Shown in pieces: positions 9,708-31,668 of a stretch of 64,000 nt of DNA; the stretch's first letter is position 1, and every line of letters begins with the position of its first letter. The stretch spans positions 337,094,001-337,158,000 of the forward strand of contig OZ024741.1 of NCBI GenBank assembly GCA_964016885.1, read 5' to 3'. The notes below the pieces were generated by a model. That model had not been told where the DNA came from. It saw only the letters and a program-made list of their open reading frames with translations, and did not search any database. Position numbers and translations under genes: made by a program. Source of the stretch: Eledone cirrhosa (Eukaryota).

Positions 9708-11117
9708 ATTATTAATATTACACTCTACTTAGTACAACCCCAAAGTATATACTGGAGACTATGCACCGAATTCTTACTGTGGTGAAACAACAGCAACTTG
9801 ATGCTACAACCCGTATATATAAATGTAGTATATTTATGATAATATTGGGGTTTTCCAATATAGATCCTGGTAAAGGTGAGAGAAGCTCAATGCAGTTGAC
9901 TTTCTTTGATAAACCAGTAATTCAAAATCGGCTGAGGATTTTTCACAGCCATTGGAGATTCTGTTGTAGACTGTGTTAGGCTACATGCTGCAGAGCTCAA
10001 ATTTTATTAATATAGAGAGAATAACCAAGTTATACTTAAGACATAATTTTAATTCTACATATGTTTCAATGTTATATATACATATACATATATATACATG
10101 TACAATATATATATATATCTCAGAATGAATGGAGGCAGTAAAAACCAGTTAGACTATTACTCACCAGAGTATTTGATACTTCTGGTATTAGAGTGGGAAA
10201 TATGAAAAATTCAAAACGCCGACAATGTTGAAATGGCCAGAGCTCAGCCGTTGGATGCTGAATTTTTTCAGATATATATATATATACATATATATACTAT
10301 ATATGTGCATATATGCATATATATATATGTAAACGTATATAAATATATGTATACATAACTGCGAGTGAGTGTGTTCTGTGATTAATTCTGGCAATGTTAT
10401 TACACAAATATGACCCTCCCCAAGTATATATATACAGATATTTATATATTACGAGCAAGACAACCAATCTTGCCTCAAGTGGGACAATTCCCGTCTAAAC
10501 CCATGCTAGCATAGAAGATGGACGTTAAACGATGATGATGATGATGATGTATCATCATTTTACGTCTGGTTTTGCCTGCTTATATCTGTGTGTATATATA
10601 TACTATATATATGCATACAGTACATATATATATATATATGTATATACACATATATGTATATATATATATGTATATACACATATATGTATATATATATATA
10701 TATATAACACAAAGTAATTAATCCCATATACAAAACGCAATATCCATATCAAACACGCTCTCTTTAAGATAAGCATATTCGTGCTATTTTAAAATAATTA
10801 ATACAATATTTTAATTAGATATTTATTTTAATTACAATCATGATATCATAATAAATATCTAATTAAAACCATTTTTTATATAGAAAACTCTGATAAACTT
10901 TTTGTTTACATGCTAAGAATTGTATATATATATATCATCATCATCATCGTTTAACGTCTATCTTCCATGCTAGCATAGGTTAGATATGGGTTAGCATGGG
11001 TTATATATATATAAGAAAGAGAGAGAGAGAGAGTGGGAAAACATTTGTTTGAATTACATTAATTGAAAGAAGCTCTATTTAGCATGAAACTTAGTCATTG
11101 GATAATAATAGAAATAA

Positions 11118-11162
<45 letters not shown>

Positions 11163-11248
11163 TATATATAATATATATATACACAATAGAAAATAAATAA
11201 AACCATAGAGCAAATATTTATCTATCTTTTATTTTAATATATATATAT

Positions 11249-11811
11249 ATTAGGATTGGTGCTCTGAAATAGCGATGTATACATGAATGTATGTATAGTA
11301 TATTTTTCCATATATCATGTTTAATTAAAAACATTTTGAAGATCATACCCTATCGGTTTTAAAGTAGTGACTATGTCACTTACTTCTTACTAATTATAGA
11401 CGCTGGATTCTTATAGAATTCCAGTAATAATCAGGAGCTGATTATATAGAGCGATTGGCGGTCCAGCAAAAATTAGGTATTAGGATTGGTGCTCTGAAAT
11501 AGTGATGTATACATCAATGTATGTATAGTATATTTGGCTCCTGATTAATACTGGAATTCTATATGAATCCAGCTTCTATAATTTTCGGCGGAAGCAGGGG
11601 GTGCATGGCTCTGGTGATCGCCAAACAGCGTGAAACAGACTGTTAGCTTCTCTCCCTTCTTTCACCAAAAAGAAGTAAGTGACATAGTCATTACTTTAAA
11701 ACCGATAGCGTATGGTCTTCAAAATGTTTTTAATTAAACATACGGTATATTGCCAAATATACTATACATACATTCATGTATACATCGCTATTTCAGAGCA
11801 CTAATCCTAAT
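11249..11811. mobile_element. Fold-back element with nested inverted and direct repeats and a hammerhead-like motif
   Basis: Outer IR 11249-11388/11670-11811, inner IR 11392-11438/11537-11583, direct repeat 11479-11535 of 11249-11305, TA flanks. A related stub lies at ~19535-19625. Confidence 0.8.
11607..11648 (+). ncRNA. Type I hammerhead-like motif with variant core (CUGGUGA)
   Basis: GGCT-CTGGTGA-tCGCcaaacaGCGt-GAAA-CAGaCTG-TT-AGCT. All three stems pair, and stem I can extend (gaag..ggggg / tctct..cttc). Confidence 0.6.
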
Positions 11812-12554
11812 ACACATATGCACATATATATAGAGAGAGAAAAAGAGAGTAAGGGAAAGAGGAGAGAATTATTGAGTGACTAAATGATGGATAAATACAA
11901 AGATATATATATACATAGCCACATAATAATTGTTTCTACTTTTGGCACAAGGCCAGCAATTACCCAGTGCATTACTGGTACTTTATTTTATCAACCACAT
12001 AATAATATAAACATATGTAAATATAGTTAGCTATTTGAAAATCTGGGTATTAAAAAAATGAATTTTATATTAAGTTAATCATAATTTCTATTGAGAGGTA
12101 AGTGAATATATTTTGTTAATATTCCTAAGTAAATTAATATGAAATGGTGGCTTCAGTATCTTCTCATGTCATCCTCAGGATAATAGTTTTCTGTGAATAT
12201 ACATTAACACTTTTGATACCAAACCACCTGAAGCCACCCTTGGTTCTATGATACAAAATATTTTATTTTAATGTGTTCACTTTTATCTGAAAGCTTTCCA
12301 TCATAATTTTATGTAAGAACGTTTGTTAAGCTATGTTCCAAACCACCTGAAACTATCCTTGGTACTATGATACAAAATGGTTTACTCTAAAGTGTTTACT
12401 TTTATATGAAAACCTTCCATCATAATTTTATGTAACAACCTTTATTAAGCTATGTTCTAAACCACTTGAAACTACCTTTGGTTCTAAGATATAAAATGGT
12501 TTATTTTTATTTAAAAACCTTCCATCATTCTTTTGTACCCTTCTATCATTATTG

Positions 12555-15753: not shown

Positions 15754-16069
15754 ATCATCATCATCATTTTACGTCCGTTTTTTCCCTGCTTGCAAGGGTG
15801 GGACGGGAACTGATTCTGGCTTGATTTCTACAGCTGGATGCCCATTTACAGTGAGTACTGGGTGCTTTTTTTGCCGTGGCACCTCCACGACCACTTTACA
15901 GTGGAATAATATGGACCCCAGTCCCTATCATCTCATTTCTACAGCTGAGTAAACTGGAGCAATGTGAAATAAAGTGTCTTGCTCAAGGAAACAACACATC
16001 ACATGTGAGAATTGAACTCACAACCTTTCGATTACAAGGCCAATGCTCTAACCACCAAGCCATGTGCCT
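15754..16069 (-). mobile_element. SINE family 2
   Basis: Reverse complement of 31337-31668. Confidence 0.85.
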
Positions 16070-31336: not shown

Positions 31337-31668
31337 GGCACATGGCTTAGTGGTTAGAGCATTGGGCTTTTAATCGAAAGGTTGTGAGTTCAATTCTCAG
31401 ACCGGTTGATGTGTTGTTTCCTTGAGCAAGACACTTTATTTCACATTGCTCCAGTTTACTCAGCTGTAGAAATGAGATGATAGGACTGGGGTCCCTATCA
31501 TTCCACTGTAAAGTGGACGTGTAGGTGACACGGAAAAAAAAACACCCAGCACTCACTGTAAATGAGGTTGGTGTTAGGAAGGGCATCCAGCTGTAGAAAT
31601 GCCAGAATCAGTTCCCGTCCCACCCTTGCAAGCAGGGAAAAGCGGATGTAAAATGATGATGATGATGA
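31337..31668 (+). mobile_element. tRNA-derived SINE family 2 with RTE-like 3' tail
   Basis: A box TGGCTTAGTGG, B box GAGTTCAATTC, central ccttgagcaagacactttatttcacattgctccag, and tail ...gcaagcagggaaaagcggatgtaaaa(tga)n, which is shared with the RTE fragment at 16956. Confidence 0.85.

Follow-up and report, generated by a model that had tools for sequence, protein, structure and literature searches.

The window analysed here is a 64,000-nt stretch of the Eledone cirrhosa genome (contig OZ024741.1, positions 337,094,001 to 337,158,000, forward strand), and positions 11249-11811 of it hold two arms of a single 315-nt unit arranged head to head. Along its 315 nt the unit runs in the order linker (40 nt), segment B (47 nt), hammerhead domain (86 nt) and segment C (142 nt). 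The right arm, on the plus strand, consists of segment B at 11537-11583, whose inner end is 5'-truncated and forms the head-to-head junction with the left arm, followed by the hammerhead domain at 11584-11669 and by segment C at 11670-11811 (unit 174-315), which has its 3' end at the position that we call site A and gives way to a TA/CA-rich stretch, read from the sequence as a degenerate microsatellite at 11812-11835. The domain scores 112 bits with our covariance model R1, a score on the model's own input, since its training sequences include the window copy. The left arm, on the minus strand, contains segment C at 11249-11388 (unit 174-315; 93.0% identical to its right-arm counterpart across 142 nt), segment B at 11392-11438 (unit 41-87; 93.6% over 47 nt), the 40-nt linker with which the unit starts at 11439-11478 (unit 1-40, placed by segment mapping) and, upstream, a 5'-truncated partial copy at 11479-11538 (unit 256-315). 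This partial copy is 95% identical to the plus arm and forms a 97% direct repeat; its join to the linker is exact, and it makes the left arm longer than one unit. The 3' end of the left-arm segment C is likewise at site A (...CCTAATA) and points outward into (TA)n at 11232-11248, within a (TA)n-rich left flank at 11107-11248 that is likely to be the target microsatellite. The 5'-truncated ends of the arms thus meet at 11537/11538, both 3' ends (...CCTAATA) face TA-rich microsatellite, and the B and C segments common to the two arms differ by about 7%.

We read the locus on both strands from 10800 to 12300 and mapped the four segments on the window and on 29 other genomic copies (window coordinates are those of L001 plus 10036). 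Every segment fell at the position assigned to it in an earlier sequence-only reading, both in the plus arm, with its order B-hammerhead-C, and in the minus arm. A repeat search of the locus returned inverted arms of 72 nt (96%), 74 nt (92%), 62 nt (95%) and 55 nt (89%), together with a 58-nt direct repeat at 11248-11305 and 11478-11535 (97%). The hammerhead segment had been described as missing from the left arm, and it is indeed absent, its former site lying at 11389-11391 on the minus strand; the description needs correcting in that the loss is an imprecise deletion of the entire long hairpin (unit 88-173, 86 nt), leaving pieces that correspond to unit 1-87 and 174-315 together with about six filler bases that repeat the neighbouring AGTAAG. 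The hairpin may have been lost through skipping of the reverse transcriptase (RT) over the base of the stem, or through a later deletion. Loose ends of other copies were found at 11388 in mapped contigs from four sequencing runs of unknown kind (Logan), a source that provides short repeat contigs only, with many repeat-driven joints. Internal deletions differ in other copies, L104 being without unit 77-139 and L017 without 154-241, and such deletions may reflect RT skipping over structured RNA. ATG-initiated ORFs overlapping 11241-11819 do not exceed 42 aa, in agreement with the earlier description of the unit as lacking an ORF.

The hammerhead of the right arm is built on a long helix I rod, in which 11582-11610 is paired with 11645-11671. 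Between these strands lie the core CUGGUGA (11611-11617), helix II (11618-11631), GAAA (11632-11635), helix III (11635-11643) and, at 11644, the U that occupies position H17, and cleavage is predicted between 11644 and 11645. A 26-nt string comprising the core and helix II matches the window once, with one mismatch, against an expectation of 0.00 in 100 shuffles. The core carries A6G at 11614, and helix I has two mismatches. Since 26 of 38 aligned genomic copies read CUGAUGA at this place, the CUGGUGA of the window is attributable to decay. The identification of a type I hammerhead made previously is accordingly upheld for the family, both by these 26 copies and by covariation, and has to be qualified for the window copy, which is damaged: the invariant core (CUGANGA ... 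GAAA ... UH) is found in the correct order in the family and is broken in the window (CTGGTGA). Judged by its letters, the window copy is dead, as its sole ribozyme combines A6G with two helix I mismatches and its other arm is without the domain. Having one mutated ribozyme, it could not release a monomer, and the locus itself is a dead copy that likely has no function of its own.

The locus is a decayed copy from an abundant, protein-less, hammerhead-carrying mobile repeat of 315 nt. A search of the species' own genome (2.99 Gb) with the 275-nt arm gave 2780 first-look candidates, at 93-96% identity. A second subfamily, first met in L062 (L062:392-706; loci L067-L096), gave 3304 first-look candidates, with copies 93-98% alike. 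The two subfamilies are equally abundant and 80% alike overall, and have GC contents of 38.7% and 33.3%. The samples described below take the 40 best-scoring hits from each search and are no census of the 2780 and 3304 candidates; with the overlapping loci L022, L026 and L095 excluded, as well as L097, which is the locus of the query itself, they comprise 86 loci, of which 28 are distinct loci of subfamily 1, 29 are distinct loci of subfamily 2, and 29 come from a search restricted to the unit's final 70 nt.

A repeating unit of about 315 nt had been proposed from the order of segments in the window, and the genomic copies bear this out: by our own reading of the best-scoring loci, the junction leading from C through the linker to B is present in 20 of the 28 distinct subfamily-1 loci, with the pieces mostly abutting. 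The genome search for tandem copies that was suggested at the same time yielded full tandem dimers in L009, L076 and L082. About two full units are present in four loci (these three and L079) and never more in the best-scoring samples. Long tandem arrays are the textbook form of a retrozyme; none made of the 315-nt unit was seen among the best-scoring sampled loci.

The two subfamilies carry different hammerhead cores. In subfamily 1, to which the 38 aligned copies belong, 20 of the 38 retain the full core string including GAAAC and a GUH site; CUGAUGA is followed by UCGC[CAAACA]GCGU, GAAAC, ACA[GAC]UGU and a site that is either GUU or GUC. Subfamily 2 has UUGAUAA, with U3-A8, in 36 of 42 copies and the full string in 32 of the 42; here the core is followed by GUAC[CAAAAA]GUAC, GAAAC, ACAG[AGCU]CUGU and GUC, and minor variants have a helix II of GCAC..GUGC (L078) or the core CUGAGGA (L079:1258-1362). 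U3-A8 replaces the core pair C3-G8 in a compensatory manner. Positions 10.1-11.1, usually G-C in hammerheads, form a G-C pair in subfamily 2, the loop 3 of which is palindromic (AGCU). Subfamily 1 has U-U there instead, with no pair in 18 of 26 rows, and its helix III is no longer than 3 bp and closes a loop of 3 nt, which makes activity in this subfamily doubtful.

We imposed the hammerhead fold on 26 aligned natural copies and scored how often partners pair, using slid partners as the control. The proportion of paired cells was 90.5%, against 44-57% when the partners were slid, and the covariation score was 0.252, against 0.054-0.095. Both sides have changed in eight of 30 pairs: the distal part of the helix I rod accounts for four of these and helix II for three, and the eighth is the core pair, which is CG in 19 rows, UA in six and UG in one, and is unpaired in none of the 26. 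The pair counts from these 26 copies, which mostly represent one clade split, support closed helices II and III with helix I open around the core; the covariation likewise comes for the most part from a single separation of two clades, so that few independent events are counted. Between the subfamilies, no segment has diverged more than the hammerhead domain (69.6% identity, against 80.5-85.1% elsewhere), yet its pairing is kept. In the predicted fold of a cleavage-to-cleavage monomer (L009:1609-1923; -83.5 kcal/mol, z = -4.74), the ends of the molecule are brought next to each other by helix I, which closes it.

Rfam searches recover this hammerhead poorly. At the gathering score, the whole window yields no ribozyme and two tRNA-like matches only; no hammerhead appears in window 11100-11950 at E<=10, or in eight other genomic loci at E<=1. 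The sole ribozyme matches are weak ones to Hammerhead_HH9, both full-length and with a threshold of 52: the canonical L003 copy scores 18.6 bits (E 0.015, 121 nt searched) and the L062 copy 21.6 bits (E 0.0019, 131 nt searched). None of the tested copies reaches the gathering score. Scores so far under threshold, like the U-U at 10.1-11.1 in subfamily 1, would suit an account in which Penelope-style copying is real and the hammerhead has no catalytic activity, or no relevance, in the master copies, the long hairpin being conserved, for example, as an RT or packaging signal, with no circular RNA involved and with over-length arms derived from tandem genomic transcripts or template jumps. It would also suit this account that most sampled insertions have a single ribozyme, and so no monomer release, and that Naiad-type Penelope elements spread well without hammerheads (PMC8557442). 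A plain hairpin, however, would not be expected to keep all the invariant core letters, as the majority of both subfamilies do, nor to have a core pair that co-varies from C-G to U-A with no unpaired row, and loop 2 (CAAACA or CAAAAA) resembles the consensus loop of HH9. We consider a dead or irrelevant hammerhead unlikely, and conclude that the type I hammerhead fold is kept in the master copies, where activity is predicted.

Two-armed insertions are common. Among the 86 best-scoring loci, 55 have two arms, and in 47 of these the arms lie in a simple minus-then-plus order with their 5' ends inward; the other 31 loci are one-armed. The outer 3' ends of the same loci (n=131) fall at site A (unit 309-315) in 70 cases, at site B (unit 278-297) in 49 and elsewhere in 12, so that two fixed sites about 27 nt apart, at unit 315 and around unit 288, hold 119 of the 131. 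(TA)3 occurs within 14 nt outside 94 of the 131 outer ends, compared with 205 of 1720 (12%) control windows in the same loci. Inner ends are 5'-truncated at variable positions. Arms sampled through their 3' ends are 78-535 nt long, and those longer than one unit cross an abutting, exact 315-to-1 junction. Our own reading of the best-scoring loci is that two-armed loci usually combine one site A end with one site B end; the window copy, both of whose outer ends lie at site A, is of a minority form seen in three of 17 two-armed subfamily-1 loci.

Taken alone, the window copy could pass for a TA-targeting MITE or foldback DNA transposon bounded by long terminal inverted repeats, as it has inverted ends of at least 74 nt, a length of about 570 bp and TA-repeat flanks. 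Constant copies made by cut-and-paste do not match what is seen across the best-scoring loci, however: 31 of the 86 are one-armed, inner junctions vary from locus to locus, one arm of a locus usually stops at site A and the other at site B, and 5' truncation gives arms of all lengths, some of them longer than the unit. We rejected this reading, which has hardly any probability left to it.

The footprint is that of Penelope insertions. As described by Craig et al. (2021; PMC8557442), these show strong 5' truncation, partial tandems that form pseudo-LTRs and an adjacent inverted, 5'-truncated copy, often with a tail of 30-40 bp at one end only, and are biased towards microsatellites, including (TA)n. 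Each of these features of endonuclease-bearing Penelope-like elements (5' truncation, partial tandem, adjacent inverted copy, one-end tail and microsatellite bias) was found here, with the tail represented by the approximately 27 nt that separate sites A and B. Mobilisation of the Penelope type had been suggested from the window, and the footprint expected of it, namely two arms, fixed outer ends and (TA)n, is confirmed in the 86 best-scoring loci; the two-armed layout likely reflects copying by Penelope-type retrotransposon enzymes. An arm of more than unit length is an ordinary Penelope partial tandem (PMC8557442), and alone is no proof of circular RNA.

Candidate enzymes are plentiful in the same genome, where a search for GIY-YIG gave 10595 first-look candidates, and where Penelope-like open frames of 604-1096 aa with a C-terminal GIY-YIG lie among TA/CA/TG microsatellites. 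Long ORFs of this kind are located at L061:1775-5062 (+), L062:4809-7622 (-), L063:2488-5019 (+), L064:4722-6629 (-) and L065:5027-6838 (-). The 315-nt unit itself is without the RT and GIY-YIG ORF of an autonomous Penelope-like element, and the eight window ORFs of at least 150 aa have no Pfam match. In this it is unlike the endonuclease-bearing Penelope-like elements of PMC8557442, and lacking such an ORF it can be at most a non-autonomous dependant. A parent Penelope was not found among 30 GIY-YIG loci (with 1.5-kb flanks) and six loci of 10 kb, and the five long-ORF loci L061-L065 have no sequence in common with the unit as part of their own element, the inspected Penelope ORFs of this genome having ends unrelated to it. 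Unit copies do occur in L032/L066 (one locus) and in L062, and look like independent insertions. Model R1, run on the Penelope loci, detected only family insertions and unrelated weak hammerhead-like sites (L055, 22.8 bits).

These searches bear on a further explanation, in which an autonomous Penelope-like element, truncated at its 5' end, has left nothing but its terminal repeat (pLTR) at the locus, and there is no separate non-autonomous family. Penelope elements are abundant in this genome, and most Penelope insertions are described as truncated at the 5' end, leaving hammerhead-bearing solo termini (PMC8557442; bioRxiv 10.64898/2026.07.22.740005). The unit nevertheless closes on itself, with the exact 315-to-1 junction in those 20 of 28 loci by our own reading of the best-scoring ones, and arms extend to as much as two units with no coding sequence in between. 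The sequence-only reading had named the finding that would speak against its own proposal, B-hammerhead-C solely as the 3' end of a coding Penelope-like element; that arrangement, as an element's own 3' end, was seen in none of 36 GIY-YIG or Penelope loci, none of which carries unit sequence at its end, and the C-linker-B junction is recurrent. A mere terminal repeat is accordingly a quite improbable explanation, and we retain that of a separate, non-coding family.

Two other hammerhead-like features were observed at the Penelope loci. A minimal core (CUGAAGA...GAAAG) lies about 390 nt downstream of the ORF stop in L064 and L065. An unrelated type I hammerhead, scoring 21.7 bits with model R1, is located at L066:486-567 (C1:267120485-267120566) and has the canonical sequence CUGAUGA GUCC[UUAAUA]GGAC GAAAC with a very short helix III.

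Short non-coding units that carry a type I hammerhead and occur in head-to-tail repeats are described as non-LTR retrozymes by Cervera and de la Pena (2020; PMC7229834), and the derivation of such retrozymes from Penelope pseudo-LTRs has been argued, in vertebrates, by Li, Clavereau and Pollet (2026; bioRxiv 10.64898/2026.07.22.740005). The present family is best read as a non-autonomous, Penelope-mobilised non-LTR retrozyme. Its non-coding unit of 315 nt, with low GC, falls in the 170-400 nt range of metazoan non-LTR retrozymes (PMC7229834; bioRxiv 10.64898/2026.07.22.740005), and it shares with them thousands of copies, a proposed link to Penelope-like elements, a single type I hammerhead in each unit with helix III short, and head-to-tail repetition, here of up to about two units in the best-scoring loci. 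It is unlike them in that the sampled copies are mostly arms of 0.3-1.4 units placed head to head, rather than long tandem arrays, and in having U-U at 10.1-11.1 in subfamily 1 and a U3-A8 core in subfamily 2.

Hammerheads with U3-A8 have been reported in Penelope elements of Schistosoma (Cervera and de la Pena, 2014; PMC4209133), and subfamily 2, in which U3-A8 replaces C3-G8, resembles these. Subfamily 2 is also like the dimer-acting type I hammerheads of that paper, having a short helix III with the palindromic loop ACAG[AGCU]CUGU, which suggests dimer action. Unlike those of the minimal Penelope hammerhead presented there, helix I and loop 2 belong to the 'canonical' metazoan type, with HH9 as the best Rfam match, and helix I is extended into a rod of about 25 bp. 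Cephalopods and octopus go unmentioned in PMC7229834 and bioRxiv 10.64898/2026.07.22.740005 by text search, and a literature search for retrozymes in cephalopods or octopus returned incidental co-occurrences only. The family is thus a known kind of element for which no cephalopod description was found in the searchable literature.

Animal retrozymes are thought to spread via small circular RNAs copied by Penelope-like enzymes. Window 11241-11819 contains head-to-head arms of a non-coding hammerhead repeat in (TA)n, and we consider it probable that they were inserted by a Penelope RT and endonuclease that acted in trans on multimeric or circular RNA. In such a process the endonuclease would cut both strands, making a staggered break in (TA)n, and each DNA 3' end would anneal to a UA-rich patch of the RNA, at site A (...CCUAAUA) or site B (...UUCAUGUAUA), from which it would prime cDNA synthesis. 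Both cDNAs would end early, and their ends would be joined head to head in mid-element. As arms longer than the unit run through the exact 315-to-1 junction, the template would already have carried that junction, and could have been either a tandem transcript or a circle produced by hammerhead cleavage and ligation. With a helix III that is short (3-4 bp) and a loop that is near-palindromic or palindromic, the ribozyme would be expected to cleave most efficiently in dimeric form within multimeric RNA.

A narrower proposal, which we advance tentatively and with more doubt than belief, is that the two-armed copies are genomic footprints of rolling-circle reverse transcription. Both ends of one Penelope endonuclease break would prime on one small circular hammerhead RNA, at sites 27 nt apart, and the core variants (U3-A8, and U-U at 10.1-11.1) would be tolerated through dimer action in multimeric RNA. 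Priming on circular RNA would enable arms to run past the unit boundary through the exact junction. If true, this would provide a testable mechanism, and an enzyme class, for the long-assumed step from circular RNA to DNA in animal retrozymes. The many young insertions, with their fixed ends, two arms and over-length arms, place constraints on the copying step of retrozymes, and the family offers two natural variants of the hammerhead core (U3-A8; U-U at 10.1-11.1) in abundant and apparently successful subfamilies, for which an assay would be easy. For annotation, it accounts for palindromic, TA-flanked repeats that would otherwise be mistaken for MITEs.

Several other repeats are present in the window. 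The tRNA-like matches at 15999-16066 (-) and 31343-31400 (+), with Rfam tRNA scores of 35.6 and 32.1 bits, have near-identical D and anticodon arms and are probably not tRNA genes but the heads of SINEs derived from tRNA. To the right of the element, 11912-11999 belongs to an extremely abundant repeat, with a summed contig depth of about 8-9 million as against 10^4-10^5 for the element, and 12219-12497 contains three tandem copies, 85-90% alike, of a 119-nt unit. To the left, a 46-nt inverted repeat (93%) at 10500-10545 and 10934-10979, with (GAT)n/(ATC)n ends, looks like two opposed copies of another short interspersed repeat.
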